Below, one piece after another: positions 7,365 to 50,636 of a DNA stretch of 64,000 nt; positions within the stretch are counted from its first letter, which is position 1, and the number at the start of each line of letters is the position of its first letter. This stretch comes from Klebsiella pneumoniae. GTDB lineage: Bacteria > Pseudomonadota > Gammaproteobacteria > Ga0077536. A program made the position numbers and the translations under genes. The stretch lies in NCBI GenBank assembly GCA_945862315.1, contig CAMAXW010000005.1, positions 17,890-81,889 of the forward strand, written 5' to 3'. The notes below the pieces were generated by a model. That model searched no databases. It had not been told where the DNA came from and was given only the letters and a program-made list of their open reading frames with translations.

Positions 7365-7951
7365 ACAGGCTAACCCAGCGCCGGCGACAGGCAGCGGGCT
7401 TCACGCTACTGGAAGTGCTCATTGCGGTGGTGGTATTTGCCATTGGGCTGCTGGGGATTGCAGGGTTGCAGGTCGCTGGCCTGCGCTTCAGCCATGGGTC
7501 GCAACTGCGTTCTGTCGCCACCATGCAGGCGGAGAATATGGCCGACCACCTACGCGCCAATCAAGCGGGCGTGCTGGCCGGTGCCTATAACCAAACCAGC
7601 AGTTTACCGACCAGCTATTCGAAAGATTGCGACGCCGTCAATTGCACGTCTACTGAACTGGCGACCTTCCACCTCGCGACCTGGAATAGCCATGTTTCTA
7701 GCACCAAACCCAAGGAGTCCAACGCCGATGTGTTGCCTAGCGGCACCGGCACGGTGTGCATCGACTCCACGCCCAATGACGGTAGTGCCGGGAACTGGCG
7801 ATGCGACAACCTCGGCGTGGTGTATGCGATCAAAGTGGTCTGGACCGAGCGCACGACCGCACAAAATGACCTAGGCGATGCTAACGGTGACGGTGTCGCG
7901 GATGTCACGGACACCCGCCAGCAGTTACTGACACTGAGGGTTATTCCTTGA
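7361..7951 (+). CDS. pilV: Type IV pilus minor pilin PilV
   Basis: The N-terminus reads MNRLTQRRRQAAG/FTLLEVLIAVVV. It overlaps fimT by 4 nt, which suggests an operon. Confidence 0.8.
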   Translation: MNRLTQRRRQAAGFTLLEVLIAVVVFAIGLLGIAGLQVAGLRFSHGSQLRSVATMQAENMADHLRANQAGVLAGAYNQTSSLPTSYSKDCDAVNCTSTELATFHLATWNSHVSSTKPKESNADVLPSGTGTVCIDSTPNDGSAGNWRCDNLGVVYAIKVVWTERTTAQNDLGDANGDGVADVTDTRQQLLTLRVIP

Positions 7952-9021: not shown

Positions 9022-9027
9022 GCAACT

Positions 9028-9654
9028 ATGAACCCACAACATCCTTCCAAATTTAGTCCGCAGGCAGGGGTGGCGCTCATCATGGCGCTGGTGTTGCTGC
9101 TGGTCATGACCATGGTGGCTGTGGTGGCCATGCGCTCCACTACCCTAGATCTCAAAATGACCACCAACAATACGCAGACCCGACGCGCCTTTCAGGGCTC
9201 TGACGGCGCGCGGGACGTCATAACACCCGTGCTCGCATCGCACGTCTTCTACCACGGTTGGCCTACCTCGCTAACCGGTGGCACGGTGGCCGCCAGCGCG
9301 AGTTTCACCATTCCTCAGGGACTCACCGTGCGGAACGCGGCGCAGCGTTTGGACCTAGCGCAAAACGGGACGTACACGCGTTTCAGTGGCAGCCCCAATT
9401 CTGACCTCAGCTTCAAAGACGATGTGAATAGCAATGGCACGATGGACCCTGATGACGTGAACGCCGAATTGTGGGTCACCCGGATCGGCGCCTTGCCCGC
9501 GGCGGGCAGCAACATGGGTTCCAACGCGGCGGATCAGGGTGCGGGTGGGGGGGGCGCCAGCAAGTACATTTTGTTTGATTTACGCTCCGACGGTCGCGCC
9601 GTCGGCAACGCGCAAGCGCGCACCGGGGCCGATTACCGCGCGCTGATTCGTTGA
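9028..9654 (+). CDS. pilX: Type IV pilus assembly protein PilX
   Basis: The N-terminus reads MNPQHPSKFSPQAGVALIMALVLLLVMTMVAVVAMRSTTLDLKMTTN, typical of a PilX N-terminal domain. Confidence 0.7.
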   Translation: MNPQHPSKFSPQAGVALIMALVLLLVMTMVAVVAMRSTTLDLKMTTNNTQTRRAFQGSDGARDVITPVLASHVFYHGWPTSLTGGTVAASASFTIPQGLTVRNAAQRLDLAQNGTYTRFSGSPNSDLSFKDDVNSNGTMDPDDVNAELWVTRIGALPAAGSNMGSNAADQGAGGGGASKYILFDLRSDGRAVGNAQARTGADYRALIR

Positions 9655-9658
9655 ACCG

Positions 9659-9773
9659 CCCACGTAGAACGCGCGTTAGTACCCGCGTAGAACGCCCGAA
9701 ATTGCCCGCGTAGAACGCCCGACATTGCCCGCGTAGAACGCCCGAAATTGCCCGCGTAGAACGCCCGACATTG
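9659..9773. repeat. Five head-to-tail copies of a 23-bp unit (CCCGCGTAGAACGCCCGAMATTG; the first copy is degenerate). They lie between pilX and pilY1.
   Basis: Units at 9659-9681 (degenerate), 9682-9704, 9705-9727, 9728-9750 and 9751-9773. They alternate AAATTG and ACATTG tails. The pilY1 ATG is 14 nt downstream. Confidence 0.9.
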
Positions 9774-9786
9774 GAGTACCAAGAGC

Positions 9787-12700: not shown

Positions 12701-14961
12701 CCGTTCGCTACACCCCGGTGACACCCAACGCTACCAACCCCGACACCACCGATTTGGCACAGTTCACACCCGAAGCGCCAATTGAACTCTCGGCAGTGAA
12801 CACCCTTTGGAATGCGCGTAAAAATCTCTCCGCGTTAAATAACACCAGCATCACCACGCAGCGCACCTACAGTGCCACCGCGGATACGGGGCGCTATATT
12901 TTTACGTGGTTGGATGGCAGTGGCACGAGCACGCCCAATAACTTAGTGGCTAGCGCAGAAGTAGTGCCTTTTGTTGCGAGCAGTATCACCGCCGCAAACT
13001 ACTACTGGCTGGACTATTTCAACACCTCCGACACCAGCGCCAACAAATACACCGGGGCGCGGCGACTGGTGGACTGGGTGCGTGGGAAAGAAAGCGTCTC
13101 AACCGAATTCCGTAGCCGGCTGTTGGACTACGATGGGCTGTCCGGCTCTGGTGGCGTGGCCGTCATGCGTCTGGGCGATATTATCAATTCCACCCCGGTC
13201 TCGGTGAGCGCGCCCTTCGCCAACTTTGACCAATCGGCACTGGATCCCTCTTATGCCACCTTCCGTGCCCTTTATAGCCAGCGCCGCCAAATGGTTTACG
13301 TGGGCTCCAACGATGGGATGATCCATGCGTTTAACGCCGGCTTCTACAATGCAGATGATCAACAATTTCAACTAGCACCCACGAGCGGCAGCACGCTCAC
13401 CCGTCACCCGCTCGGCAGCGAAATTTGGGCCTATGTGCCCAAGAACGCGCTACCTCATTTGCAGTGGATGGCGCGCCCCGATTACTCCCACGTTTACACC
13501 GTAGATTTACCGCTGCGGGTGTTTGACGTAAAAAGCTTCCCCGCCGATAGCACCCATCCCGGCGGCTGGGGCACGATATTAGTGGCTGGCATGCGTTTCG
13601 GCGGCGGTACCGACACCACCGGCATCTCAGTGGATGTGGGTGCCGATGGTGCGACCACCGCGAACGTCACCACCAAATCGGCCTATGTGGTGTTAGACAT
13701 CACCAATCCAGAAGTCGCGCCAACGCTGCTGGCCGAACTAAGCCCCACCAACTTGCAGTTCTCAACCTCCATTCCACAGGTGGCGGCGTTTGGCGACCCT
13801 TCCGGCACCACGGCCGGCAAGTGGTATTTGGTGTTCGGCTCAGGCCCTACCGATTTTGCCAACGCCCAGTACGCCTCCGGCAGCGGTAATACCAAAGCTC
13901 GGCTGTTTGTATACGACTTGGCCAATTTGGGGACGGCATCCAGTTTGGCGGCCTCGCCCGCCAACCTGAAATATCAGAATACCCCACCCGCAACCCAGAC
14001 CTTCGCGATGCCAGACAACAACGTCTTTGTCGGCGATCCCGTCAGCACGGATTTCGACATCGACATGAAGGACGAGGCAATTTATTTCGGCACGGTGGGG
14101 CCGCTGGTGGCGGCAGGCGCCACGCCGCCCAGCACCACAGGGACCCAGGGCAGCCTGTTCCGGATGTTGCTCAACGAGAACTCCAGTCCGGGCACTTGGA
14201 CCGGCCCCACGCGCCTGCTGTCCAATCTCAACCAGCCCTTTGTGGGACAACCAGCCGTCACCATCGACAGCAAAAACCGGCGGTGGGTGCTGGCCGCTAC
14301 CGGGCGGCTGTTCGTCAACGGCGACAAATCAACCCGCGACCAGCAGACCCTCTACGGCATTATTGACACCGCCTTTAGCGGATCGACCAAGCCGGCGGTT
14401 ATCAGCGATTTGGTGGATGTCTCGGCGGCCCAAGTATTCTCCAACGACACCGCGACCGGTGTGACACTGGCAACAGGTAGCGACACCGATGGTAACGGCG
14501 CCACCTCCACCTTGGAGCTGCGCAACGCGATAGCCACCGCGGGCGGCTGGCGCAAGAACTTGACCATCACCACCGCCAGCCCGGCGGAACGCAGCAGCAG
14601 CCGCCTCACGCTCTTCGGCGGCATTGTGTTTGGCTCCATGTTCACCCCCAGCACAGATCTATGTTCATCTGATGGCACTAGCCGCTTACTGGGCTTGGAC
14701 TTCACTACCGGCGCACCCCCGATACTAGGCGTCTTTGATTGTGCTAACTGCAACGACCCCACAGTGCCGCTGCCGGAAAGCCTGTCACAGGGCGGCGGCT
14801 ATTCCTCTAGCGCGAGCGTGCACTTTGGTGAGCAAACCATCGAAGGGCGGGTCACGGTAATTACCCAAGACTCGCGTGGTGAACTGGAGGCCAGTCAAGT
14901 CAACACGAGTAGCGGCAACCCGGCCAGCGAAATATCATGGCGGGAGTCCCGAGGTGACTAA
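9787..14961 (+). CDS. pilY1: Type IV pilus tip adhesin and biogenesis factor PilY1 (PilC family), unusually large at 1724 aa
   Basis: Signal peptide followed by a huge Thr/Ser/Gly/Asn-rich protein. The C-terminal PilY1 beta-propeller hallmark is ...VYVGSNDGMIHAFNAGFYN... The gene sits between pilX and pilE. Confidence 0.8.
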   Translation: MKISKTCTGFLHGLALSMALLPALWSAGAQAAASNLSGRLMAQFVAAPILTAQSVPPLVMLSMSLDHQYWQKSYNDYTDLNGDGVVERSYLDSFEYYGYFHAERCYTYSDTNKVFTAVGVAAGTNNHYCEGALSTAWSGNFLNWVAMARMDVVRKILYGGQRSTDTATQTILERTFLPGDAHSFAKYYNGADIAKLTPYDSLRTDTLNGGNNNGVDNSDEGISFCNISFAASGNSQTSTALPLMRVAKGNFSLWNANERRQCSWQDEFGNNSDSNVSSESGIFASAGDPPDASALKTPSSNRDHVVRVEVCAATYFDENRDLENCADYGANRKPEGLLQTYGLTGLMQFGLLTGSYQKNLSGGALRKRIATLNDEINTTDGTFKTLSASTPGIIKTLNAVRIFGYGYTNGTYLSGDGGDDCTFLLTDIRTEGGGPGEGKCASWGNPMSEIYLEAIRYFASTTRAATSAFNADDSTYITNLARDTNWAAPLTTTNACASLSTIVFNASVSSYDEDQTNPSPLTSSTAAALTKTVGDGEGITGNNYFIGRNGSLSDEFCTAKPLSGANGLGDALGLCPEAPTLRGSYHMAGLAHWAHTNDISTALSGVQTVRTFAVALQTGTPVIQVPVTGGVVKILPAYRLRKGGNNTNESSNVPANDGGGTLVDFKVVRPHTEVVSASNLTAATNTGFFNAKFYVNWEDSEQGGDFDQDMWGTIEYLVNQNVTPATVTITTKAVAQSTITGQLFGFVTNGTTQDGFHAYSGILGANYYASTGFDPSGVKGCNNCRALSETGGQQGAQSYTFTVKTGSNANLLESPLYYAAKWGGFEDSDANKTPKIAAAPSDTREWDADGDGIPDTFFFVSDPGLLEATLRTVFNSILERVSSGTAAAVVANEQKGNGAIFQALYDPEKKDADGNTARWIGTLQALFVDSHGLIREDGNADGKLDDYATDKVLRLEFDDGASTAAEERRTKAVRYTPVTPNATNPDTTDLAQFTPEAPIELSAVNTLWNARKNLSALNNTSITTQRTYSATADTGRYIFTWLDGSGTSTPNNLVASAEVVPFVASSITAANYYWLDYFNTSDTSANKYTGARRLVDWVRGKESVSTEFRSRLLDYDGLSGSGGVAVMRLGDIINSTPVSVSAPFANFDQSALDPSYATFRALYSQRRQMVYVGSNDGMIHAFNAGFYNADDQQFQLAPTSGSTLTRHPLGSEIWAYVPKNALPHLQWMARPDYSHVYTVDLPLRVFDVKSFPADSTHPGGWGTILVAGMRFGGGTDTTGISVDVGADGATTANVTTKSAYVVLDITNPEVAPTLLAELSPTNLQFSTSIPQVAAFGDPSGTTAGKWYLVFGSGPTDFANAQYASGSGNTKARLFVYDLANLGTASSLAASPANLKYQNTPPATQTFAMPDNNVFVGDPVSTDFDIDMKDEAIYFGTVGPLVAAGATPPSTTGTQGSLFRMLLNENSSPGTWTGPTRLLSNLNQPFVGQPAVTIDSKNRRWVLAATGRLFVNGDKSTRDQQTLYGIIDTAFSGSTKPAVISDLVDVSAAQVFSNDTATGVTLATGSDTDGNGATSTLELRNAIATAGGWRKNLTITTASPAERSSSRLTLFGGIVFGSMFTPSTDLCSSDGTSRLLGLDFTTGAPPILGVFDCANCNDPTVPLPESLSQGGGYSSSASVHFGEQTIEGRVTVITQDSRGELEASQVNTSSGNPASEISWRESRGD

Positions 14962-23249: not shown

Positions 23250-23440
23250 GGATTTTATTTAACCGGTATCCAAAAGGAATTCGAGGGCCTAAGGCCCGCT
23301 GAGCCCTGCATGGTACGTAAATGTCCCCCCTGACTCAACCCTGAATTGCAGTGCTGCGCCTCGGCCCACCGCTTGCTCTGGCAATAGCGCAGGCCTATTG
23401 GCACAATCCCTCCGATGATTACGCACGGTGTGTCCCTTTG

Positions 23441-24439
23441 ATGTCCCCCCTCGCCAGTCCTCCCAGCCATCCCGCGCTCGCCGACGTGAATCTTTTGCTG
23501 ACGGCGCAACTCGCCGCGGTCGACACCCTAATGCGCGAGTGTTTGCACTGTGACGTGCCGTTGATCAATCAAGTCAGCCACTATGTGATTGGCAGCGGCG
23601 GCAAACGGTTGCGCCCCGTGTTAACGCTCGTTAGCGCGTGCGCCATGGGCTACCCGGGTACGCGGCACATCGACTTAGCCGTGATCGTCGAGCTGATTCA
23701 CACTGCAACCCTATTACACGACGATGTCGTGGATTCCTCCAGGCTACGACGCGGCCGCGAAACCGCAAATATCGTTTGGGGCAACGAGGCCAGCGTGTTG
23801 GTCGGCGATTTCTTGTACTCGCGGGCGTTTCAAATGATGGTGGAAATTGGCGAACTAAAAGTTCTCAAAATCCTCGCGGACGCCACCAACACCATCGCCG
23901 AGGGCGAGGTGATGCAGCTGGTGAATTGCCGGGACCCTGAAACCACCGAGTCTCGGTATCTGGACACCATTCGCTTCAAAACCGCCAAACTCTTTGAAGC
24001 CGCGGCGCAGCTCGGCGCAGTGATCGCCGGCAGTGATGCGGAGCACGAAAATGCGCTGGCCTGCTATGGACGGCATCTCGGTACCGCGTTTCAGTTGGTC
24101 GACGACGCATTGGACTACAGCGCAACCGCCACAGAGATCGGAAAAAATATCGGGGACGACTTGGCAGAAGGTAAGCCGACGCTGCCACTGCTCTACGCCA
24201 TGTGGAAAGGCTCGCCAGAACAAGCGCGCATTATTCGCCGGGCGATCGAAGAAGGCGGGCTAGAGCGGATCAATGAAATCTCTTCTGCAATTGAATCAAC
24301 CGGAGCCATCACTTACACTTTCTCGCTCGCTGCAGCGGAAGCCCGGGAAGCCCGGGAAGCTTTAGCGGGAGTTCCGGGGTCGCCGTTTCTGGATGCGCTA
24401 GTAGCGCTCACAAAATTCACGGTAGAACGGAAGTCATAG
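23441..24439 (+). CDS. ispB: Octaprenyl (polyprenyl) diphosphate synthase
   Basis: Carries the polyprenyl synthetase motif LLHDDVVDSSRLRRG and the second DD motif. I chose the start at MSPLASPP. The track starts at 23351. Confidence 0.85.
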   Translation: MSPLASPPSHPALADVNLLLTAQLAAVDTLMRECLHCDVPLINQVSHYVIGSGGKRLRPVLTLVSACAMGYPGTRHIDLAVIVELIHTATLLHDDVVDSSRLRRGRETANIVWGNEASVLVGDFLYSRAFQMMVEIGELKVLKILADATNTIAEGEVMQLVNCRDPETTESRYLDTIRFKTAKLFEAAAQLGAVIAGSDAEHENALACYGRHLGTAFQLVDDALDYSATATEIGKNIGDDLAEGKPTLPLLYAMWKGSPEQARIIRRAIEEGGLERINEISSAIESTGAITYTFSLAAAEAREAREALAGVPGSPFLDALVALTKFTVERKS

Positions 24440-24566: not shown

Positions 24567-25685
24567 ATGAATTCGTGGGTAGGTCAAGCGACATCTAGCA
24601 TGATGGGTGGTCTTCCTACGACAGCAGACGAAAATTTTCAGAGCGCCATTCTGCAGGGCGTGTCCAGAACCTTTGCATTAACCATCCCGGCCCTACCCAG
24701 TGAGCTATCACGCGCGGTCGGCAACGCCTATCTACTGTGCCGCATCGCCGACACGATCGAAGACGACGCCGACCTATCCCTGCTTGCCAAGCAACGCTAC
24801 GCCAACCAGTTTAATGCCATCCTCGCCACGCACGCGCCCGCGACGGAATTTGCCGCCGAACTGAGCGGGCAACTTGCCGCGCACGCTACCGCTGCCGAGC
24901 GAGAACTCATCGCCAACACCGAGCGTGTGGTCCGGATAACGCATTCGCTTGCCGCCCCACAGCAAGCTGCACTCGCGCGTTGCGTGCGGGTGATGTCGGA
25001 AGGCATGCTTTTTTATCAGGGACAGGAAACGCTCGATGGACTGAGCGATCAGCCGGCGATGGATCGCTACTGTTACTACGTTGCTGGCGTGGTCGGCGAA
25101 ATGCTGACCGAACTTTTTTGTCACCACTGTCCCGCCCTTGCCCCCCAGCGGGCGACGCTATTAAAACTCGGTGTGTCCTTCGGCCAAGGCCTCCAAATGA
25201 CCAATATTCTGAAGGACATTTGGGAGGATCGCGCCCGCGGCGCGTGCTGGTTGCCCCGCCCGGCTTTTGAAAATCGCGGGCTACGCCTCAGTACCATGGG
25301 TCCCGGTGAGGGTGGCGAGGCCTTTGTCGCCGGGCTGCGAGAGCTGCTGGGCATCGCCCATGCACATTTGCGAAATGCGCTGGAGTTCACCTTAATGCTC
25401 CCAGCCAACCAAGTTGGCATGCGGAAATTCTGCCTGTGGGCGCTTGGAATGGCCTTATTGACCCTCCAGAAAATTAACGATCAGCCACATTTTGAATCAG
25501 GCCAAGTGGTTAAGATTTCCCGCCGCAGTGTCAAAGCCACGCTCGCACTGACCACCCTAACGGCGCGCAGCGCGACCGCCTTGCGCCTATTGTTTGCACT
25601 TGGCGCGAAGGGCTTACCGCTGACGGATCTGGCGCCTCCCGGTCCGCTTCTTCTCGATGCAACAGCACCTCGGCCGCCCGATTAG
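24567..25685 (+). CDS. Squalene synthase / squalene-phytoene synthase family enzyme (Sqs, HpnC/HpnD-like)
   Basis: Carries the DTIEDD, YCYYVAGVVGEM and QMTNILKDIWED motifs. Confidence 0.8.
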   Translation: MNSWVGQATSSMMGGLPTTADENFQSAILQGVSRTFALTIPALPSELSRAVGNAYLLCRIADTIEDDADLSLLAKQRYANQFNAILATHAPATEFAAELSGQLAAHATAAERELIANTERVVRITHSLAAPQQAALARCVRVMSEGMLFYQGQETLDGLSDQPAMDRYCYYVAGVVGEMLTELFCHHCPALAPQRATLLKLGVSFGQGLQMTNILKDIWEDRARGACWLPRPAFENRGLRLSTMGPGEGGEAFVAGLRELLGIAHAHLRNALEFTLMLPANQVGMRKFCLWALGMALLTLQKINDQPHFESGQVVKISRRSVKATLALTTLTARSATALRLLFALGAKGLPLTDLAPPGPLLLDATAPRPPD

Positions 25686-25720: not shown

Positions 25721-26413
25721 ATGAACCACGCCCCTCCTATCGGCGTCGTCGCTGCGCTGTCTGCCGAAGCGCGCAGCTGCGCCACATGGCGCGAACTCGG
25801 AAATCTCGAGCTGATTATTGCGGGCCCTGGCCCGCTGCGCGCCGCCGCCGCTGCGCGACGATTGGTGGCTGCCGGCGTCCGGGAGCTCGTGAGCTGGGGA
25901 ACTTCTGGCGCGCTCAGCGAGCACTTAAAACCCGGTCAATTGCTGCTGCTTAAAGAGACCTGCGATACCAACGGTCAGCGCTATCCAGCGGACGCCCAGC
26001 TGCTGCAGCTGTTTAGCCACCGTCTGGCAACCCTCAGCCCACTGCCCGTCGTGGCCCTGACGCTCGCAACACCCGTCTTGCATCAACACGAAAAGCGCGC
26101 GCTCGCACAACGCCACCACTGCGCTGCCGTGGACATGGAATCGGCGGCCGTGGCCCAAGTGGCGTGTGCGGCGCAGCTCCCATTTCTGGCGGTGAGGAGC
26201 ATCGTTGACCCGCTAGATTTCGATATTCCAACAGCGGCGATGGCCGGCATGAGTGAGGATGGCGAGCCACAACCTATCGGGGTGATGAAGGCGCTGCTGG
26301 CGCGGCCGCGCGACTTGTTCGCGGTCATTCGACTGGGGCTCCACTACCGCACAGCGCTCGCCACGCTGGCGCGGGCGGCCGGGCTGTTAGGCCGCAGCGA
26401 GATTGCTCGCTAG
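25721..26413 (+). CDS. hpnG: Hopanoid-associated phosphorylase HpnG (nucleoside phosphorylase family)
   Basis: 230 aa. Carries the PNP/MTAN-family motif ...AVDMESAAVAQV... in a hopanoid context. Confidence 0.65.
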   Translation: MNHAPPIGVVAALSAEARSCATWRELGNLELIIAGPGPLRAAAAARRLVAAGVRELVSWGTSGALSEHLKPGQLLLLKETCDTNGQRYPADAQLLQLFSHRLATLSPLPVVALTLATPVLHQHEKRALAQRHHCAAVDMESAAVAQVACAAQLPFLAVRSIVDPLDFDIPTAAMAGMSEDGEPQPIGVMKALLARPRDLFAVIRLGLHYRTALATLARAAGLLGRSEIAR

Positions 26414-26531: not shown

Positions 26532-27533
26532 GTGACCATCCTCGTCACGGGTGCCTCGGGCTTCGTGGGGAGCGCCGTGGTGCGCGCGCTCTTGGCGCGG
26601 GACTCGCCGGTGCGGGTGCTCGTGCGTCCCCAAAGCGATCTCAGCAATGTGCGCGACCTCGCAGTGGAAATTGTCGAAGGGGATCTCCGCGACCCGGCCT
26701 CTCTGCGGCGCGCCTGTGAAGGTTGCAGCGGCCTTTACCACTTGGCCGCCGACTATCGCCTATGGACGCGCACGCCTAACGACTTATATGCCAGCAACGT
26801 AGAGGGTACCGGGCACTTGATGGAGGCGGCGCTGGCCGCGAAAATCCCACGCATCGTCTATACCAGCAGCGTCGCGACACTCGGCCTGCATCAGGATGGC
26901 CGCCCTGCCGATGAAAGCACGCCGGTCAGCCTCAGCGACATGATCGGTCATTACAAGCGCTCGAAATTTCTGGCCGAACAACTGATCGACCAGCTGGTAG
27001 TGGAGCGCGGTTTGCCTGCGGTTATCGTGAATCCATCAACCCCGATCGGACCCTACGACATCAAACCCACCCCAACGGGTCGGATGGTTCGGGACGCCTA
27101 TTTCGGCAGAATCCCAGCCTTTGTCGACACGGGGCTTAATCTGGTGCACGTCGAGGATGTGGCGCACGGCCATTTGCTGGCGTTCGATGCGGGCACCGTG
27201 GGTCGCCGTTATATTCTGGGCGGAGACGATCTCTCGCTGCGCCAAATCTTGACGGCCATCGCCAAACTCGCCAAGCGTGCGCCGCCGATGATGGAAATCC
27301 CCAGAATGGCAATCCTACCCATTGCCATCGTAGGCGAAGCTTGGGCGTGGCTCACTAACGGCTCTGAACCTCAAATTACGGTGGATGGTCTGCGGATGTC
27401 GCTCAAAAAAATGTACTTCGACTCCAGCCGCGCGCGACGCGAACTGGGCTATGTGAGTCGCCCCGCCGCAGCGGCGATCGCCGCCGCCGTCGAATGGTTT
27501 AGTCGCCCGGAACGCCCACGTGCAGCGCGCTGA
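26532..27533 (+). CDS. hpnA: Hopanoid-associated sugar epimerase HpnA (NAD-dependent epimerase/dehydratase)
   Basis: The N-terminus reads (GTG)TILVTGASGFVGSAVVRALLARD... with a Rossmann fold. Confidence 0.75.
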   Translation: MTILVTGASGFVGSAVVRALLARDSPVRVLVRPQSDLSNVRDLAVEIVEGDLRDPASLRRACEGCSGLYHLAADYRLWTRTPNDLYASNVEGTGHLMEAALAAKIPRIVYTSSVATLGLHQDGRPADESTPVSLSDMIGHYKRSKFLAEQLIDQLVVERGLPAVIVNPSTPIGPYDIKPTPTGRMVRDAYFGRIPAFVDTGLNLVHVEDVAHGHLLAFDAGTVGRRYILGGDDLSLRQILTAIAKLAKRAPPMMEIPRMAILPIAIVGEAWAWLTNGSEPQITVDGLRMSLKKMYFDSSRARRELGYVSRPAAAAIAAAVEWFSRPERPRAAR

Positions 27534-27534
27534 G

Positions 27535-28272
27535 ATGCACGCGGTTATCCTCGCCGCCGGTGTTGGGAGTCGGCTCGACCTGCCCGACAGTCAGCCCAAG
27601 GCTTTGCTGGAAATGGGCGGGCAGTCGCTGATGGCCCGCCAACTGGAAAATCTCTCGCGTTTAAACGTGCGTCGCGTGACGGTCTGCGTGGGCCATCAGG
27701 CCGACTATCTCACCACCGCTATCCAGCGCGCCGGCCATCCGGAGGTGCAGTGTGTCATCAATACGGAATACCGTCTGGGTAGCGTGCGCAGCCTGTGGAC
27801 GGTCCGCGCGGCCCTCACTAGCGGCGCAGATATCCTCGTGCTAGACGCCGACGTGCTGTCTTGCCCTAGCCTGCTCACGCGCTTGGTCAACAGTCCGATA
27901 CAAAACTGCCTGTTGCTCGATCGCGACTACCCACCGGGCGACGAGCCAGTCAAAATTTGCGTGCGCCAAAACGCTATCGTGGAATTTCGCAAGCGCCCAG
28001 ATCCCGCCATCGCGTTCGATTTCGCGGGAGAGTCGGTGGGCTTTTTTAAATTCGCACCCGCCGCCGCCGCCGCCCTAGCGCGCCTGACGGAGCGCTACAT
28101 CGATACGGGACGCAGCAACGAACCGCACGAAGAAGCCATCCGGGATCTGCTGCTCACCGAAAATCATTCCCCAGGATTTGAGGACATTACTGGCATACCC
28201 TGGATAGAAATTGATTTCCCCGCGGACCTACGCCGCGCGCGTGCGGAAATCTTACCGAGGATAACGCCATGA
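27535..28272 (+). CDS. Nucleotidyltransferase (LicC/MobA-like NTP-transferase family)
   Basis: The N-terminus reads MHAVILAAGVGSRLDLPDSQPKALLEMGG... Its ATG follows the hpnA stop by 1 nt. The track calls a GTG at 27520. Confidence 0.7.
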   Translation: MHAVILAAGVGSRLDLPDSQPKALLEMGGQSLMARQLENLSRLNVRRVTVCVGHQADYLTTAIQRAGHPEVQCVINTEYRLGSVRSLWTVRAALTSGADILVLDADVLSCPSLLTRLVNSPIQNCLLLDRDYPPGDEPVKICVRQNAIVEFRKRPDPAIAFDFAGESVGFFKFAPAAAAALARLTERYIDTGRSNEPHEEAIRDLLLTENHSPGFEDITGIPWIEIDFPADLRRARAEILPRITP

Positions 28273-28425
28273 CTGATCCTGCGATCAGCCCCTCAGCGGT
28301 CGGTCGACGCCCACTGCCGCGCGGCTGGTATCACCCCAGATCGCACAGTGCCTTAACGAAAAACGCACCGCAGGCGTGGGACACGCATCCCGCAACCAAC
28401 GGCCGGATAGAGCTTGGCGCGCCAC

Positions 28426-29610
28426 ATGATTGAAGCAGTTGAATTTGTCGAAGCGGCGCGCCGTGCAGGGTTTACTTGGTACGCCGGCGTACCCTGTTCG
28501 TTCCTCACCCCGTTTATCAACCATGTCATTGACGACCCCACGTTGCAGTATGTCTCGGCTGCCAACGAGGGGGACGCAGTCGCCGCGGCTGCCGGGGCGA
28601 GCATCGGCGGTCGACTCGCGGTGGCGATGATGCAGAATTCTGGCCTCGGTAATGCCGTCAGCCCACTGACGTCGCTCACGCATGTTTTTCACATCCCGCT
28701 GCTGCTCATTTGCACACACCGCGGTGCGCCGGGCGTCGCGGACGAACCGCAGCACGCATTAATGGGCACCATCACCGGCCAGTTGCTCGATACCATGCAA
28801 ATCCCGTGGGAGCAGTTTCCCACCGAGCCACAGGCCATCGAAGCGGTGCTAATGCGAGCCATCGCACACCTGACGACCGAGCAGCGGCCCTATGGCCTAG
28901 TCATGCAGCAGGGTAGCGTTGCGCCGCAAGCTCTCGGGCCGAGGGGCGTGGCGCAAGTTCGAGCTAGCGTGCTAGCCCAAGGTGCCTTGGGTGGTCACGC
29001 CGATCGTCCCTCCCGCACGGCGGCGCTAGAGCGCGTCATCGCCGCCACCCCGCTGCAACACTCGGTGGTGATTGCCACCACCGGCTACACCGGGCGCGAG
29101 CTCTATGCCCTAGCCGACCGGGATAACCATCTGTATTTGGTGGGATCGATGGGTTGTGCCACCTCGCTAGGCCTTGGCCTCGCGATGGCGCGTCCCGACT
29201 TGCACGTCGTGGTGGTGGATGGGGACGGCGCAGCCCTGATGCGCATGGGAAACTTCGCGACCCTGGGTCATTACGGCCCGGCTAATTTGTCGCATGTGCT
29301 ATTGGACAACGAGATGCACGAATCGACTGGTGGCCAGTCAACAGTCAGTCCATGGGTGGATTTTGCGCAGATTGCGGCGGCCTGCGGCTACACGGTTTGT
29401 CAGCGCGCAGCGACCTTAAACGACGTCGACCGCTTTCTAACCCGTCACCGGCAGCGAGGTGCAGGGTTTCTGCATCTCAAGATCAGTCCGGGCATTCCGG
29501 CGAATTTGCCCCGCCCGAGCACGCCCCCACCGACCGTGCTCCGCCGGTTGACGCGCCATTTGGCGGTCGCCTCGGACGGGGTTGGAGCAGGCTCGCCGCC
29601 AGTCCGCTAA
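28426..29610 (+). CDS. TPP-dependent decarboxylase of the phosphonopyruvate / sulfopyruvate decarboxylase family
   Basis: The N-terminus reads MIEAVEFVEAARRAGFTWYAGVPCSFLTP. The TPP-binding block VVVDGDGAALMRMGNFATLGHYGPANLSHVLLDNEMHESTGGQ is present. The track calls a TTG at 28414. Confidence 0.7.
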   Translation: MIEAVEFVEAARRAGFTWYAGVPCSFLTPFINHVIDDPTLQYVSAANEGDAVAAAAGASIGGRLAVAMMQNSGLGNAVSPLTSLTHVFHIPLLLICTHRGAPGVADEPQHALMGTITGQLLDTMQIPWEQFPTEPQAIEAVLMRAIAHLTTEQRPYGLVMQQGSVAPQALGPRGVAQVRASVLAQGALGGHADRPSRTAALERVIAATPLQHSVVIATTGYTGRELYALADRDNHLYLVGSMGCATSLGLGLAMARPDLHVVVVDGDGAALMRMGNFATLGHYGPANLSHVLLDNEMHESTGGQSTVSPWVDFAQIAAACGYTVCQRAATLNDVDRFLTRHRQRGAGFLHLKISPGIPANLPRPSTPPPTVLRRLTRHLAVASDGVGAGSPPVR

Positions 29611-29628: not shown

Positions 29629-31524
29629 TCAGGCGATCGGGCTGCTCGCCACCGATGCGGTTTGGGCGGCCCAGCGCGCGCGCACTTTTGCTTCCACTTG
29701 GTCACTCGTGAGGCCAGCCTCGCGCAGCATGTCTTCGCGCGCGCCGTGTTGTAGGAAGCAGTCTGGCAACCCAATGTGTAGCACTTGCGCGGCGATTCCT
29801 TGCGCCGCCAGCACCTCGCTCACGGCGCTGCCCGCACCGCCCATCACAGCGTTTTCGTCAATCGTCACGAGTAAGTCATGGGAACGGGCGAGCTCTACCA
29901 CGAGGGCTTCGTCCAAGGGTTTGATGAACCGCATGTTCACCACCGTGGCGTTTAATGCCTCGCCCACGCTCAGCGCCAAACCCACCATGCTGCCGAACGC
30001 CAGCAAGGCGATACCGGTGCCCCGACGTCGCACTTCGCCTTTGCCGATGGGCAGCGCGGTCATGGTTTTTTGGACCTCTACGCCCAAGCCTGGACCGCGG
30101 GGATAGCGCACAGCAGCTGGGGCATCGAGCGTGAAGCCGGTGTAGAGCATCTGCCGACATTCGTTTTCATCCGCCGGCGCCATGAGGACCAAGTCGGGTA
30201 AACAGCGCAGGAAGCTTTCGTCGAAACTACCGTTGTGGGTCGGGCCATCCGCCCCCACCACACCCGCCCGATCTATCGCAAAAAGCACCGGGAGTTTCTG
30301 GGTCACCACGTCGTGGATGAGTTGGTCGTAACCGCGCTGAAGAAACGTGGAATAAATGGCCACCACGGGCTTCAAGCCGTCGCAGGCCATACCCGCGGCA
30401 ACCGTGACGGCGTGTTGTTCAGCGATCGCAACATCGAAATATCGCGTCGGATGTTCGCGTTCAAAACGCACCAATCCCGATCCTTCGCGCATCGCCGGCG
30501 TGATGGCGACCAAGCGTGGGTCGTGAGCCGCCATGTCACAGATCCATTCGCCAAAAACGTCGCTGTAAGTCGGCTTGGCCACTTTGGCCGAAGGCACGAT
30601 TCCGAGCGTGGGATCAAACGGCGAAACGCCGTGGTATTTCACCGGATCGGCTTCCGCCGGCTCGTAACCCTTGCCCTTTTTAGTGATGATGTGCAGGAAC
30701 TGTGGGCCGCTCAATTCGCGGATATTACGCAGCGTAGCGAGCAGCGTTGGCAGGTGGTGGCCATCGATTGGACCAATGTAGTTAAAACCGAATTCTTCGA
30801 ACAGCGTACCCGGGACGACTAATCCCTTGACGTGTTCCTCGGCGCGGCGCGCTAACTCCCAAACGCTCGGCAACTGCGAAAGCACTTTTTTACTGCCTTC
30901 GCGCACCGTGGTGTAAAGCTTGCCGGAAATAAGTTGCGCGAAACGATTAGCCAAAGCGCCGACGTTGGGCGAAATCGACATGTTGTTGTCGTTGAGAATG
31001 ACCAGTAAGTCGGCGCCAATATCGCCGGCGTGATTCAACGCCTCGAAGGCCATCCCAGCGGTGAGACCACCATCACCAATGATCGCCACCGCACGCCGGC
31101 CGCTGCCGGTATGACGCGCAGCGATCGCCATGCCCAAGGCAGCGCTGATGGAGGTACTGGAATGGCCAACCCCAAAGGCGTCGTAAGGCGATTCATCGCG
31201 TTTGGGGAACGGCGCTAAACCTTCCCACTGACGAATGGTTGGCAAACGCTCGCGGCGACCCGTGAGAATTTTATGCGGGTAGGCCTGATGACCCACATCC
31301 CACACAAGGCGGTCTTCGGGAGTGTTGTAGAGATAGTGCAGCGCGATGGTGAGTTCGATGGAACCCAGTCCGGCTGCGAAATGGCCACCGCTGCGGCTGA
31401 CCGACTCTAACAGGCAGCCGCGCAGTTCCCGGCCGACCTGCTCTAAAGAGGATTCCGGGAGCTGTCGCAGGTCGTAAGGCGAATTGATCCGTGAGAGTAG
31501 CGGATACTGTATTTGCTCGGTCAT
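29629..31524 (-). CDS. dxs: 1-deoxy-D-xylulose-5-phosphate synthase
   Basis: 631 aa. Carries Dxs N-terminal motifs and the TPP-binding GDG...N block. Confidence 0.95.
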
Positions 31525-31755
31525 GTGTGATTCCGCGATAAAGATCCGCTGCTCAGAGCCGGGCGTCAGATTATGGATAGCGCGCGAATTGCTTGCAAGC
31601 CTGAGGCGGCGTGCGCAGGTCAGCCCCCCACGCCATTACGGCCGAGGATTTAAGCTTCCGATGCCCGATGCAATGTCGTAACATGCGGCCAACCCATCGT
31701 TTTCAATCCGTTGAAAAAAGATGGCTTATTCCTCCGACAACAGGGTTTTCTACGC

Positions 31756-32880
31756 ATGAGTGTCCCCTTCATCCAGCAATACCGTATCGCGCGTTACATT
31801 ATTAGCAACAAGCTGCGCGGCATAAAACGTTATCCTCTGGTCCTGATGCTGGAACCGCTGTTCCGTTGCAACCTCGCTTGTTCGGGTTGCGGCAAAATCG
31901 ACTATCCGGACGAAATCCTCGATAAGCGCTTGAGCTACGAGGACTGCATGCGCGCAGTGGACGAGAGTAATGCCCCGGTCGTCTCTATTGCCGGCGGCGA
32001 ACCCCTGATCCACAAAGAAATGGCCCAGATTGTCCAAGGCTATGTGCAACGCAAGAAATTCGTGTATCTCTGCACCAATGCGCTCTTGCTCGACCGCAAG
32101 ATGGACCAATACACGCCCTCGCCCTACCTCACTTTTTCTATCCACCTCGATGGCAATAAAACCCGCCACGACAACTCCGTGTGTCGCGAAGGTGTGTATG
32201 AAAAATGCGAACAGGTCATCCTTAAGGCGCGCGCTCGCGGCTTTCGGGTAACCGTCAACTGCACGCTATTCCAAGGTGAAACTGCGCCGGAACTCGGCCA
32301 GTTCATGGACCGAATGATGGCCTTGGACGTCGAAGCAGTCACCATGTCCCCTGGTTACAGTTATGAGCGCGCGCCGCGGCAGGATGTGTTCCTCAAGCGC
32401 GAGGCGAGCAAGCAACTGTTCCGCGATATTTTCAAACTGGGCAAAGGCCGCAATTGGCGCTTTAACCAATCGCCCTTGTACATGGACTTCTTGGCCGGTA
32501 ACCAGACCTACCATTGCACTCCTTGGGGTGCTGTTACCCGCAATGTTTTCGGTTGGCAGAAGCCGTGCTATCTCCTGGTTGGAGAAGGCTACGCCAGCTC
32601 CTTCAAAGGGCTCATGGAAGAAACGGAATGGGAGCGCTATGGCACCGGCGTGAATCCTAAATGCGCCAATTGCATGATGCACTGCGGCTACGAAATGACG
32701 GCCGTGGAAGACACCTTCTCCCACCCCATCAAAGCGGCACGCGTGGCGTTGTTCGGGCCTAAAACCACCGGCCCCATGGCGCCGGAAGTACCTTTTCGCT
32801 ACCCCGAGGCCGTACCGACTCCAGCACGGCTACTCAGCGTGGTGAAAAACGAAAAAGACACCACGAAACAGGTCGCTTGA
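31756..32880 (+). CDS. hpnH: Hopanoid biosynthesis radical SAM protein HpnH (adenosylhopane synthase)
   Basis: The N-terminus reads MSVPFIQQYRIARYII... and the CxxxCxxC motif CNLACSGC is present. I chose the start at 31756. The track starts at 31711. Confidence 0.85.
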   Translation: MSVPFIQQYRIARYIISNKLRGIKRYPLVLMLEPLFRCNLACSGCGKIDYPDEILDKRLSYEDCMRAVDESNAPVVSIAGGEPLIHKEMAQIVQGYVQRKKFVYLCTNALLLDRKMDQYTPSPYLTFSIHLDGNKTRHDNSVCREGVYEKCEQVILKARARGFRVTVNCTLFQGETAPELGQFMDRMMALDVEAVTMSPGYSYERAPRQDVFLKREASKQLFRDIFKLGKGRNWRFNQSPLYMDFLAGNQTYHCTPWGAVTRNVFGWQKPCYLLVGEGYASSFKGLMEETEWERYGTGVNPKCANCMMHCGYEMTAVEDTFSHPIKAARVALFGPKTTGPMAPEVPFRYPEAVPTPARLLSVVKNEKDTTKQVA

Positions 32881-32929: not shown

Positions 32930-34042
32930 ATGATGTTCTGCTGGGCTGTGGGCGCCGCAGTCATTTGGACGGCCATCTTGCTGCTCCCATGGCGGCCCTG
33001 GGCAGTCAGCGAGCAAATTTCTGCGGCGGCACCCGGTGCACACAGCGGTCTGGAAGACATCACCGCACTGATCCCGGCGCGCGATGAAGCCCACTGTATT
33101 ACCGACACCCTCCAACGACTTGCCGCGCAAGGCCACCTCGCGCGCATTGTGCTCATCGACGACGAAAGCAGTGATGGCACGGGAGACCTCGCCAGAGGCT
33201 TAGGTCTCGACTCGTTACACGTTATCAGCGGGCAGCGCCCGCCGCCTGGCTGGTCGGGCAAACTCTGGGCGCTCGAACAAGGACTGCAACACGCGACCAC
33301 GCCTTATGTCCTGCTGCTCGATGCAGATATCTCGCTGGCGCCTGGGATCCTCGCCGCGTTATTGGAGAAATTACAGCGCGAATCGCGCGACTTGGTCTCC
33401 GTCATGGCGGCCCTCTCGATGACCACAGTGTGGGAGCGACTGCTCATCCCACCCTTCATCTATTTCTTTAAAATGCTTTATCCGTTCGCTCTGGCCAACT
33501 CGAAGTCGCCACGCGTGGCCGCGGCAGCAGGTGGCTGCATTTTAATGCGCCGCGACACCCTCTTGACACTCGGTGGTTTTGCCGCGCTCCGCGATGCGCT
33601 GATCGACGACTGCACGCTAGCACGGCATGTGAAGAGCGCCGGTGGCAGCACGTGGCTGGGACTCTCGCGCGATGTGTTTGCCGCCCGCCCCTACCCCTCG
33701 CTCGCGAGTATCTGGAACATGGTCGCCCGCACGGCCTTCACCGAACTGCGCTACTCGATCCTATTGCTGTTGCTGTGCACCGTGTTGCTGGTGGTCGTAT
33801 TTGTGGTGCCAGTGGTCGGCTTGGCTAGCACCGATAACACCACACGAGGCCTATGCGTGCTGGTGATGGCGGCAATGGTGCGCAGTTATCTGCCCGTCCT
33901 GCGTTACTATGACCGCCCGCAGCTCTGGGCGTTAACACTACCCATTGCAGCAACACTGTATCTGGCGATGACTTGGACCTCGGCGCTGCGCTATTTTCGC
34001 GGCGAGCGTTCCCGCTGGAAGAATCGAACTTATCAACGCTAG
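32930..34042 (+). CDS. hpnI: Hopanoid-associated family 2 glycosyltransferase HpnI
   Basis: GT2 signature ...IPARDEAHCITDTLQRLAA...VLIDDESSDGT...LLLDADIS... Transmembrane segments are present at both the N- and C-termini. Confidence 0.7.
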   Translation: MMFCWAVGAAVIWTAILLLPWRPWAVSEQISAAAPGAHSGLEDITALIPARDEAHCITDTLQRLAAQGHLARIVLIDDESSDGTGDLARGLGLDSLHVISGQRPPPGWSGKLWALEQGLQHATTPYVLLLDADISLAPGILAALLEKLQRESRDLVSVMAALSMTTVWERLLIPPFIYFFKMLYPFALANSKSPRVAAAAGGCILMRRDTLLTLGGFAALRDALIDDCTLARHVKSAGGSTWLGLSRDVFAARPYPSLASIWNMVARTAFTELRYSILLLLLCTVLLVVVFVVPVVGLASTDNTTRGLCVLVMAAMVRSYLPVLRYYDRPQLWALTLPIAATLYLAMTWTSALRYFRGERSRWKNRTYQR

Positions 34043-34067: not shown

Positions 34068-34679
34068 ATGTTCAAATCGCTCCGTATTACGACCTGCCTG
34101 CTATTGGCCATGGCCGCCCCACTGGCGTGCGCCGCGGCGGCCGCCGACGGTGCAGTCGCGGTGGTAGAAAAACTCCACGCAGCGCTGTTGAACACCATGA
34201 AAGATGGCACCACGCTAGGCTACAAAGGTCGGGTGGAGCGTCTGACCCCGGTCATCAAGGAATGTTTTAACTTCAACACCATCGCGCGCGCCGTGACCGG
34301 ACCGCACTGGAAAACATTGGCCGCTGATAAACGGGAACAATTTATCACTACTTTTGCGCAACTCAGCGTGGCGACCTACGCCGAGAATTTTTCCAGCTAC
34401 GGCGGCGAAAGTTTTGAGACGGTAGCGCAAGAAGAATCTCGCGGTGCCACGCTCGTCAAAACCGTTATCATCACTGGCGACGGCAAACGCGTTTCACTGA
34501 ATTACGTCGTGACCCAATCGGCAGAACAGTGGGGAATTGTGAATGTTATCGCGCAGGGGGTGTCCGATCTCGCCTTGAAACGTACCGAATATGACGCCGT
34601 CATTTCGGCCCAGGGCATCGATCCACTGATTGCAAAACTCGACGCCAAAGTTGCATCATACGCAGCAGCCGGAAAGTGA
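34068..34679 (+). CDS. hpnM: MlaC/Ttg2D-family periplasmic lipid-binding protein (HpnM-like)
   Basis: Signal peptide followed by a Ttg2D-like sequence. It lies immediately downstream of hpnI. Confidence 0.65.
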   Translation: MFKSLRITTCLLLAMAAPLACAAAAADGAVAVVEKLHAALLNTMKDGTTLGYKGRVERLTPVIKECFNFNTIARAVTGPHWKTLAADKREQFITTFAQLSVATYAENFSSYGGESFETVAQEESRGATLVKTVIITGDGKRVSLNYVVTQSAEQWGIVNVIAQGVSDLALKRTEYDAVISAQGIDPLIAKLDAKVASYAAAGK

Positions 34680-34738
34680 CCGCGATGATCAACGAGCACC
34701 TAGCAGCAGAAAGTTTAGCCATGGTTCGGAACCAAAAA

Positions 34739-35566
34739 ATGTCAAAAGAGCGCATCGTCCGAGGACTATTCACCCTCGTGTTGGCCGCCTTGGTAAGCGC
34801 TTGCGCCACCAATACCCCCAAAGGGCCAAACGACCCTTGGGAAAAACAGAACCGCAAGTTCTACAATTTTAACGATAGCCTCGATCGCAAATTTTTCACC
34901 CCGGTGGCTAAAGGTTATGTTGCGGTTACCCCCAAACCCGTGCGGGCGAGCGTCACCAACGTTTTTGAAAACGTCGGCTATTTAAACGTGATAGCCAACG
35001 ACCTGCTGCAGGGCAAGCTCACCAATTTTGCCGCCGACTCCGGCCGGTTCATTGTTAATAGTTCCATCGGCTTGGGTGGCATTTTTGACCCCGCCACTAG
35101 CCTCGGCCTGCCAGCGCACGACGAAGATTTTGGTCAAACGCTCGGCAAATGGGGTGCTGGCGAGGGCCGCTATTTGGTGCTGCCCCTCATGGGACCTAAC
35201 TCCTTTCGGGATCTGCCAGACATTGCGACATCCATGGCACTGAACCCGCTGACCTACATCAGTGCGGTCGTCACCGTACCGCTGGGGGTTCTCAATCTTA
35301 TCAACATGCGGGCTAACCTACTGGAAGCCACCAACATCCGCGACCAAGCGGCGCTAGATCCCTACACCTTCGTGCGCGAGGCCTATCGCCAAATGCGGGA
35401 ATTCAAGATTTACGACGGTAACCCGCCGAGCGAGAGCATCGATGACTACCTTGATGAAGATGACGGCGACGTAGCGGCAGCCCAGCCAGCAGTCGTCCAA
35501 CCGCAGGCAGCTAAGCCAGCAACTGGGGCAGAGGCCGCTGACCCGTCGGTCTTAAAAGTCTACTAA
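34739..35566 (+). CDS. mlaA: MlaA/VacJ-family outer-membrane lipoprotein
   Basis: The N-terminus reads MSKERIVRGLFTLVLAALVSAC, a lipobox. The rest of the protein is VacJ-like. The track starts at 34676. Confidence 0.75.
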   Translation: MSKERIVRGLFTLVLAALVSACATNTPKGPNDPWEKQNRKFYNFNDSLDRKFFTPVAKGYVAVTPKPVRASVTNVFENVGYLNVIANDLLQGKLTNFAADSGRFIVNSSIGLGGIFDPATSLGLPAHDEDFGQTLGKWGAGEGRYLVLPLMGPNSFRDLPDIATSMALNPLTYISAVVTVPLGVLNLINMRANLLEATNIRDQAALDPYTFVREAYRQMREFKIYDGNPPSESIDDYLDEDDGDVAAAQPAVVQPQAAKPATGAEAADPSVLKVY

Positions 35567-49035: not shown

Positions 49036-49050
49036 AGCCGGCACCTGACC

Positions 49051-49881: not shown

Positions 49882-49890
49882 CAGGAAACG

Positions 49891-50607: not shown

Positions 50608-50636
50608 GCCGCTAGCAGTTCGCTGCAGCCGGCCAT

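Follow-up and report, generated by a model that had tools for sequence, protein, structure and literature searches.

We analyzed a 64,000-nucleotide stretch of a gammaproteobacterial contig (CAMAXW010000005.1 of GenBank assembly GCA_945862315.1, forward strand, positions 17,890 to 81,889), referred to below as the window and numbered from its first letter. Inside a hopanoid locus, the window encodes a nucleotidyltransferase (NTase) followed by a thiamine pyrophosphate (TPP) enzyme. Very likely, both genes come from a seven-gene 2-aminoethylphosphonate cassette, the first as its stand-alone cytidylyltransferase of the LicC/PntC type and the second as its genuine phosphonopyruvate decarboxylase (Ppd), and they are the sole cassette genes left at this locus. 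An initial annotation, made from the sequence alone, had described them as a phosphonate-type gene pair within the hopanoid locus. Comparison with relatives showed the pair to be no self-contained module but a remnant of the seven-gene cassette, the other five genes having been deleted.

The identity of the TPP enzyme was assessed with curated profile models. It matched TIGR03297, the phosphonopyruvate decarboxylase equivalog (EC 4.1.1.82), with 423.9 bits against a cut-off of 312.5 and over the entire profile (positions 1–360 of 360). The protein contains the domains PF02776 (TPP_enzyme_N, residues 8–113) and PF02775 (TPP_enzyme_C, residues 238–340), and the middle domain is absent. An identity as ComDE, the sulfopyruvate decarboxylase, is ruled out by the curated cut-offs, with 93.4 bits for ComD (TIGR03845, cut-off 147.95) and 134.1 bits for ComE (TIGR03846, cut-off 221.5). 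Acetolactate synthase (ALS), pyruvate decarboxylase and indolepyruvate decarboxylase (IPDC) were similarly ruled out: these are three-domain enzymes of about 550 aa, whereas the window protein has 394 aa and no middle domain, and its scores fall far below the cut-offs (about 19–27 bits against 363–976 for the ALS models and 31.8 bits against 946 for the IPDC model). The profile comparison proposed with the initial annotation thus came out for Ppd, whose model was passed while those of ComDE and ALS failed. The motifs quoted in that annotation are all present in the translation; numbered from the ATG at 28426, they are GVPCSFL (21–27), DGDG (265–268), N295, and NEMHESTGGQ (295–304). DGDG, N295, and the cofactor-activating glutamate E48 are invariant in the family alignment, and HESTGGQ also occurs in pepM-linked Burkholderia Ppd enzymes, so that NEMHESTGGQ is not special to the window. 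The closest solved relative is RhiEF, a split Ppd (PDB 9IZ3).

The NTase belongs to the NTP_transf_3 family (PF12804, 56.4 bits, cut-off 27). It matched no NCBIfam model above its cut-off; the weak matches below the cut-offs include sugar-1-phosphate and inositol-1-phosphate nucleotidyltransferases. Among solved structures, the best relative is PntC of Treponema denticola, a 2-aminoethylphosphonate (AEP) cytidylyltransferase (6PD1, E 4.6e-11, residues 2–243), and the second-ranked is the phosphocholine cytidylyltransferase LicC (1JYK, E 7.4e-5). Homologues are publicly annotated as “phosphocholine cytidylyltransferase family protein”. The N-terminal LAAGxGxRL (GxGxR) signature is present, with the sequence MHAVILAAGVGSRL. 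Over its full length, the NTase is 51% identical to the stand-alone NTase of locus L001, and 26% identical to the PepM-fused NTase domain; judged by these alignments, it is an orthologue of the cassette’s stand-alone NTase and not of the fused domain. In T. denticola PntC (Tde-PntC), the AEP-selective pocket involves Glu104 and Glu196, which are Asp in LicC, and Ari-PntC is LicC-like yet prefers AEP (PMC6697681). The window NTase has Asp at the Glu104 position, as LicC does, and the Glu196 position is unreliably aligned. PntC is defined as lying near or being fused to ppm (PMC6697681); orthologues of the window NTase lie directly upstream of ppm in 54 other loci, and the window has no ppm. Overall, with the decarboxylase matching TIGR03297 and the NTase having PntC as its nearest solved relative, the earlier assignment of the pair to the phosphonate type is borne out.

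The parent cassette is known as the “Group 1 phosphonolipid” cluster (Yu et al. 2013), which is the same as the “Burkholderiales_CDP-OH” family (Li & Horsman 2022, PMC8942020). This family, with a seven-gene core, was the most abundant pepM neighbourhood in the latter survey, which counted the stand-alone NTase among the cassette’s two PntCs; its product has never been characterised, and a 1-hydroxy-AEP lipid was predicted (PMC8942020). The cassette genes encode a CDP-alcohol phosphotransferase, a 2-oxoglutarate (2OG) oxygenase, a flippase-like protein, the NTase, a PepM-NTase fusion, Ppd, and AepZ, and we confirmed the same seven genes in Burkholderia cenocepacia.

Contigs whose Ppd is 64–76% identical to that of the window, with 68–76% for its nearest relatives, have the same outer synteny as the window and a complete cassette between hpnG and dxs. 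The full cassette with identical outer synteny was found in L001, L002, L087, L088, L089, and L122; the conserved surroundings comprise rplU, rpmA, obg, proB, and the polyprenyl synthase and squalene synthase genes on one side, and glcF, an FAD-binding oxidase gene, and aroC on the other. The gene order in relatives is hpnG, CDP-alcohol phosphotransferase, hpnA, an hpnL-like gene of the flippase family (on the opposite strand), a HalD/BesD-like 2OG oxygenase, NTase, PepM-NTase (544–555 aa, with the motif EDKIFPKTNS), Ppd, and AepZ (a class-V aminotransferase), followed by dxs, hpnH, hpnB, hpnM, and mlaA. The transaminase, oxygenase, CDP-alcohol phosphotransferase, and LPG_synthase_TM protein are all present in L087, L088, and L018. 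The CDP-alcohol phosphotransferase of relatives has about 200 aa, is encoded between hpnG (or hpnN) and hpnA, and has its best NCBIfam similarity to archaetidylinositol-phosphate, PIP, and DIPP synthases. Its coordinates are:

L087, 3185–3793: CDP-alcohol phosphotransferase
L088, 4562–5170: CDP-alcohol phosphotransferase
L001, 5157–5759: CDP-alcohol phosphotransferase
L002, 4078–4674: CDP-alcohol phosphotransferase

In L087 and L088, the phosphotransferase gene overlaps both hpnG and hpnA, by 4 nt each. Because of such stop/start overlaps in the interleaved order, the phosphonate genes are presumably translationally coupled to the hopanoid operon. At L088 314–2440, a phage-type integrase gene and a helix-turn-helix gene replace the polyprenyl synthase gene directly upstream of the squalene synthase gene, so that a mobile element has inserted at the edge of the locus in this relative.

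The corresponding locus of the window is organized as follows:

23351–24439, plus strand: polyprenyl diphosphate synthase (PF00348, 265 bits), the conserved left flank of the locus
24567–25685, plus strand: squalene/phytoene synthase family gene, squalene synthase-like (PF00494, 176.8 bits)
25721–26413, plus strand: HpnG-like hopanoid-associated phosphorylase/nucleosidase (TIGR03468, 169.3 bits, cut-off 187.1; PF01048)
26532–27533, plus strand: hpnA, hopanoid-associated short-chain dehydrogenase/reductase (SDR) “sugar epimerase” (TIGR03466, 470.7 bits, cut-off 367.65)
27535–28272, plus strand: LicC/PntC-like NTase, 245 aa (PF12804, 56.4 bits)
28273–28425, no strand: spacer of 153 nt, the site of the 1.65-kb pepM-NTase fusion gene in relatives
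28426–29610, plus strand: Ppd (Ppd/AepY type, fused PYR and PP domains), 394 aa (TIGR03297)
29629–31524, minus strand: dxs, 1-deoxyxylulose-5-phosphate (DXP) synthase (TIGR00204, 911.6 bits), convergent with Ppd
31711–32880, plus strand: hpnH, adenosylhopane synthase of the radical SAM type (TIGR03470, 528.3 bits, cut-off 225)
32930–34042, plus strand: hpnB, hopene-associated family 2 glycosyltransferase (GT2) (TIGR03469, 394.8 bits, cut-off 379.25)
34068–35566, plus strand: hpnM (MlaC-like; TIGR03481, 207.9 bits, cut-off 160.1) and MlaA-like lipoprotein (PF04333), lipid trafficking, end of the operon

Membership in a hopanoid locus is supported by HpnH, HpnA, HpnB, and HpnM, all of which score above their curated cut-offs, and the HpnG-like gene falls narrowly under its own. 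The PF04333 assignment of MlaA was taken from the gene calls of an identical contig, in which hpnH starts at 31756. The NTase ATG at 27535 follows the hpnA stop codon (TGA, 27531–27533) after a gap of 1 nt, exactly as initially annotated; if the alternative GTG at 27520 were the start, the two genes would overlap by 14 nt. Ppd starts with the ATG at 28426 (alternative TTG at 28414) and follows the NTase, as had been noted, though at a distance of 153 nt rather than the 150 nt first given. Its stop codon is 18 nt from the convergent dxs, which is the right-hand neighbour at the same position in every hopanoid-embedded locus. The pair was also correctly placed between hpnG/hpnA and hpnH, but the gene beyond hpnH, which had been named hpnI, is hpnB (HpnI model, 44.9 bits against 310). 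Downstream of hpnG, the window has 118 nt of non-coding DNA where relatives carry the CDP-alcohol phosphotransferase gene with its 4-nt overlap with hpnG.

On the left side, the polyprenyl diphosphate synthase gene is syntenic in L001, L004, L006, L084, and L087. The locus has one squalene/phytoene synthase family gene in place of the hpnCDE set, and this gene (24567–25685) scores below the cut-off of each of the models for squalene synthase (TIGR01559), HpnC, and HpnD. No squalene-hopene cyclase gene (shc/hpnF) was found among the large open reading frames (ORFs) of the window scanned with Pfam, and the cyclase is presumably encoded elsewhere in the genome. The identical Ppd protein, in the same gene order, occurs on 8 contigs, and the three places inspected come from three different samples.

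Ppd is regarded as the obligate partner of phosphoenolpyruvate (PEP) mutase, whose unfavourable equilibrium it pulls forward. In the window, PEP mutase is absent from all 64 kb, in agreement with the initial annotation: it was recovered neither by tblastn, with the partner proteins of a relative as queries, nor by a profile hidden Markov model (HMM) built from 80 PepM domains, which returned noise only. AEP transaminase, CDP-alcohol phosphotransferase, and 2OG oxygenase were likewise not found in the 64 kb by tblastn and profile HMMs; the HMMs were built from 41–82 homologues each. The LPG_synthase_TM (flippase-like) protein was not profile-searched, and its syntenic position leaves no room for the gene, because the NTase starts 1 nt after hpnA.

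To place this reduced locus among its relatives, we scanned one genome per species, which yielded 80 Ppd loci. PepM lies directly upstream of Ppd in 79 of these, including L075, where a contig end cuts the fusion gene. The exception is L004, a gammaproteobacterial metagenome-assembled genome (MAG) from Lake Baikal, which has the same reduced layout and a Ppd 84% identical to that of the window, and which is the window’s closest species-level relative. The reduced clade consists of four lineages from independent projects: the window itself, L004/P0002, L132/L133 (NTase 93% identical to the window; part of NCBI MAG GCA_947480475.1), and L134 (Ppd 95% identical to the window). Nearly all metagenome loci with visible upstream sequence have PepM, the exceptions being distant split-subunit homologues of about 38% identity. 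We rejected these PepM-less loci (L126–L129, 38% identity) as comparable cases, as the two inspected, L127 and L129, are split and ComDE/RhiEF-like. There, two adjacent genes encode about 180–220 aa each (L127 5923–7099, L129 5986–7118), with no PepM nearby. No further members of the reduced clade and no intermediates were found in JGI metagenomes, where the best locus reached 69% identity over the full length, and where L122, at 76% over the N-terminal part, carries the full cassette.

In a neighbour-joining tree, the window and L004 are sister to L087/L088 and nested among full-cassette Gammaproteobacteria, and the loss of the cassette genes is therefore derived. The Ppd enzymes of both carry a C-terminal extension (about residues 380–394), ending in ...HLAVASDGVGAGSPPVR in the window and ...HLDVPVAADGASPTL in L004; in relatives, Ppd ends about 5 residues past “HL”, about where aepZ starts. 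This extension is common to both, and they also resemble each other in the spacing at the junctions, which points to single ancestral deletions. Very likely, the cassette was interleaved with the hopanoid side-chain operon in the ancestors of this gammaproteobacterial lineage, and the common ancestor of the window’s clade deleted all cassette genes but the NTase and ppd.

Searches of the 153-nt spacer with blastn-short and tblastx, run against 11 pepM regions, detected no significant pepM remnants, and the local-alignment score of the window spacer, set against shuffled spacers, had a z of about 0.2. Where the NTase ends, the overlapping ATGA looks like the start of pepM in relatives, a likeness too short to count. 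The spacers of the window and L004 align no better than by chance, and the window spacer is about 12% diverged from that of L132, which is about the synonymous rate; it thus behaves neutrally. It has no Rfam match to a riboswitch or other RNA, and no promoter-like or terminator-like site was found in it. A 54-aa ORF (28269–28433) spans the spacer, its ATG overlapping the NTase stop (ATGA) and its stop lying 5 nt inside Ppd, and L004 has an analogous 58-aa ORF in its spacer. We rejected the 54-aa ORF, which is probably not a gene: its sequence is unconserved, its frame is broken in L132 by a 1-nt indel, and the spacer as a whole diverges about as fast as synonymous sites do.

Both surviving genes are under purifying selection. 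In the comparison with L004, at a dS of about 0.9–1.06, Ppd has a dN/dS of 0.091 and the NTase one of 0.147, both within the range of the neighbouring genes (0.044–0.174). At lower divergence, Ppd differs from that of L134 by 19 non-synonymous and 43 synonymous changes (dN/dS 0.144, p=1.6e-12 against neutrality), and the NTase differs from that of L132 by 18.5 and 17.5, respectively (dN/dS 0.335, p=0.003 against neutrality); for squalene synthase, HpnG, and HpnA, the comparison with L132 gave dN/dS values of 0.12–0.19. Both ORFs are intact wherever visible in the four lineages, each being visible in three of the four, as two contigs are short.

The two proteins differ in how far they have moved from the family pattern. 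The mean identity of Ppd to the Burkholderiales outgroup is 61.4%, the highest among the gammaproteobacterial members, so that Ppd shows no rate acceleration. Of the 158 columns that are at least 95% conserved, Ppd is changed at 3, and pepM-linked orthologues at up to 9; Y33H and K162Q are common to both lineages compared (the window and L004). These two observations give no sign of an altered substrate specificity of Ppd, and there is little support for the initial annotation’s view that the substrate of the decarboxylase is open. Of 66 conserved columns, the NTase departs from the family at 6 in the window and at 10 in L004, more than any other sequence does. The window and L004 have in common F27M/I, L33M, H36Q, L102V, M103L, and Y109S/A, all at positions with a conservation of at least 95% among pepM-linked orthologues; at the Y109 position, Tyr is also found in Tde-PntC. 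These six changes may mark a change of the substrate pocket after the loss of the fused PntC and the oxygenase.

We then considered the association between the cassette and hopanoid genes. Among the 80 loci of the species-level scan, 12 have the cassette embedded in the hopanoid operon, all 12 of them gammaproteobacterial MAGs, and so do the additional loci L001, L002/L003, L087–L092, and L122; hpnN, hpnM, and mlaA flank the locus. In Burkholderiales loci, there is no hpn gene within 10 kb of the cassette. A cassette of NTase, PepM-NTase, Ppd, and AepZ is also found in three genomes of Nostoc (L066 6823–15993, Nostoc linckia NIES-25; L030; L081), in which PepM and AepZ score above equivalog cut-offs and the distance to a convergent hpnH (554.5 bits)-hpnA (480.5 bits) pair is 2.7–5 kb. 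Cyanophycin synthetase and cyanophycinase genes lie upstream of the Nostoc cassette. Nostoc, from a second phylum, provides an independent case of the cassette lying near hopanoid genes. A 2021 genome survey noted that hopene cyclase is linked to PEP mutase in Roseomonas, for which an “undiscovered terpene-phosphonate” was proposed (PMC8776678). Among the papers searched, none brings phosphonopyruvate decarboxylase together with hopanoids, and none describes a hopanoid-phosphonate compound.

The initial annotation had further described the pair as positioned as if it decorated a hopanoid or glycan head group. The link to hpn genes stands, as the genes are interleaved in relatives and co-localised in Nostoc, and hopanoid decoration itself is a reading of gene order. 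Gene order suggests a hopanoid, or a lipid trafficked along with hopanoids, as recipient of the activated phosphonate in these organisms. Transfer of the phosphonate within the hopanoid pathway is hinted at most strongly by the CDP-alcohol phosphotransferase gene between hpnG/hpnN and hpnA. For the full-cassette relatives, a related reading is that the most abundant pepM cluster family may make an AEP- or hydroxy-AEP-hopanoid and not a glycerophosphonolipid. The place of the cassette beside hopanoid genes, in a group of freshwater and groundwater Gammaproteobacteria and in Nostoc, makes a bacteriohopanepolyol a candidate phosphonate acceptor, and Nostoc linckia NIES-25 and Burkholderia are culturable carriers of the cassette.

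What the two remaining genes do is best addressed by weighing several explanations. We tentatively favour the one in which Ppd and the NTase keep the ancestral phosphonate chemistry and PEP mutase is encoded elsewhere in the genome. Ppd would decarboxylate phosphonopyruvate to phosphonoacetaldehyde, and the NTase, the sole PntC-type enzyme left at the locus, would join CTP to a small phosphono-amine or phosphono-alcohol, yielding a CMP-phosphonate. The steps past phosphonoacetaldehyde, like PEP mutase, would be supplied from elsewhere in the genome, the NTase and Ppd genes are probably co-transcribed with hpnA, and the probable destination of the product is a membrane lipid handled together with hopanoids. 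That Ppd is unchanged argues for retained phosphonopyruvate chemistry, and the changes in the NTase are what one would expect of an enzyme that had to step in once the locus had lost the oxygenase and the fused PntC domain. Several observations weigh against this explanation. PEP mutase, AEP transaminase, CDP-alcohol phosphotransferase, and 2OG oxygenase are all missing from the window; aepZ and the phosphotransferase and oxygenase genes were removed by separate deletions, the pattern expected of pathway loss; and the NTase’s low-divergence dN/dS of 0.335, above the 0.12–0.19 of its neighbours, could reflect relaxation and not adaptation. Moreover, about 83% of pepM neighbourhoods include a ppd gene (PMC8942020), and a second pepM cluster without its own ppd, as would be needed elsewhere in this genome, would be the less common case. 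Selection on Ppd in a clade without pepM at the locus would mean either a phosphonate pathway split across the genome or a second substrate for the family.

The second of these options corresponds to a repurposing without PEP mutase, the main rival, which we consider rather unlikely: Ppd would act on another anionic 2-oxo acid, such as sulfopyruvate or 3-phosphohydroxypyruvate, and the NTase would activate the product or a derived phospho-amine for a hopanoid or lipid head group. In its favour are the loss of four to five cassette genes by separate deletions with exactly two kept under purifying selection through a dS of about 1, an NTase whose tally of altered conserved columns is the highest in the family and which is joined to hpnA by a 1-nt gap, and Y33H and K162Q of Ppd in both lineages of the clade; in addition, the Bacteroides fragilis Ppd is reportedly weakly active on pyruvate and sulfopyruvate. 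However, Ppd is not accelerated and keeps 155 of the 158 conserved columns, with as many as 9 changed in pepM-linked orthologues; its score lies well over the Ppd cut-off and under those of ComDE; and the locus encodes no next-step enzyme (transaminase or transferase). The alternative substrates are speculative and without precedent in the Ppd family. We would give a somewhat lower chance still to the specific claim that a two-enzyme, PEP-mutase-free module supplies a hopanoid, or a co-exported lipid, with an activated anionic head-group precursor that is not a phosphonate. If true, no Ppd-clade enzyme before it would have had a physiological substrate besides phosphonopyruvate, and an undescribed class of polar hopanoids would be indicated.

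It is improbable, in our view, that the NTase supplies a nucleoside diphosphate (NDP)-sugar or CDP-alcohol to HpnA (SDR) and HpnB (GT2) for hopanoid glycosylation, with Ppd kept for an unrelated reason. An NTase with an SDR “epimerase” and a glycosyltransferase is the classical arrangement of sugar-nucleotide genes, the gene directly follows hpnA, and the protein is claimed by no curated family and weakly matches the sugar-1-phosphate and inositol-1-phosphate nucleotidyltransferases; but its nearest solved relatives are PntC and LicC, not sugar-1-phosphate transferases, and its orthologues are fixed in cassettes of Burkholderia, Paraburkholderia, Caballeronia, Trinickia, and Cupriavidus, with no hpn gene within 10 kb. 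The adjacency to hpnA is a by-product of deletion, since the hpnL-like and oxygenase genes separate the two in relatives. Even less probable is that the pair is a non-functional relic, the leftovers of a dead pathway awaiting decay. In its favour, all partner genes are gone from the locus, and the NTase’s low-divergence dN/dS is about twice that of its neighbours; yet the ORFs are intact across lineages diverged to a dS of about 1, and the dN/dS values of Ppd (0.09–0.14, p=1.6e-12) and the NTase (0.15–0.34, p=0.003) testify to selection, in contrast to the spacer between them, which has drifted beyond alignment. Finally, the window derives from metagenome assemblies, and the absence of pepM might be attributed to an assembly or binning artefact; the occurrence of the layout on 8 contigs with the identical protein and in three other lineages, from independent projects, already refutes this, and we give it practically no weight.

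The rest of the window is housekeeping in character: glnS, minor pilins, PilY1, ispH, ribF, murJ, proB, obg, htpG, mutS, metG, and a kinase/phosphatase/FHA cluster. A type IV pilus minor-pilin operon (GspH/FimT-like, PilW, PilX), followed by the gene for a PilY1-like protein, occupies 6720–14961; this last protein is unusually long (1724 aa), and its match to the PilY1 propeller is limited to residues 1129–1380. In a signalling cluster at 46474–52886, genes for a CHASE2-Ser/Thr protein kinase (853 aa), a PP2C phosphatase, and an FHA-domain protein are convergent with a gene for a CHASE2-adenylate/guanylate cyclase (749 aa).

Set against known enzymes, the window decarboxylase shares with established Ppd enzymes (AepY of Bacteroides fragilis, Fom2, and RhiEF) the fused PYR/PP architecture, the GDG...N motif, and the ANEGDA glutamate, and differs from them in having no adjacent PEP mutase, in a clade-specific C-terminal extension of about 10 residues, and in Y33H and K162Q. 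ComDE belongs to a homologous TPP decarboxylase family, and both of its subunit models match the window protein partially; ComDE consists of two subunits, whereas the window protein is a single fused chain. The NTase shares the PF12804 fold with PntC (Tde1415, 6PD1/6PD2) and LicC (1JYK) and aligns over its full length to the PntC domain, but its identity to them is low, and it is a stand-alone protein, fused neither to Ppm nor to an aminotransferase, with no ppm nearby.

At the level of gene organization, phosphonate genes adjoin hopanoid genes both in the window and in Roseomonas (Acetobacteraceae, Alphaproteobacteria), which we compared by description; there, the link is to shc and pepM is present, whereas in the window it is to hpnG, hpnA, and hpnH, and pepM is absent. 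The closest known system is the Burkholderiales_CDP-OH cassette. Two of its seven core genes have orthologues in the window, Ppd (59–63% identity) and the NTase (about 44–47%), in the order kept from the cassette, and the other five, for the Ppm-PntC fusion, AEP transaminase, 2OG oxygenase, CDP-alcohol phosphotransferase, and LPG_synthase_TM protein, are lacking. While the Burkholderiales cassettes have no hpn gene within 10 kb, the genes of the window and its sister lineages lie inside the hopanoid operon.

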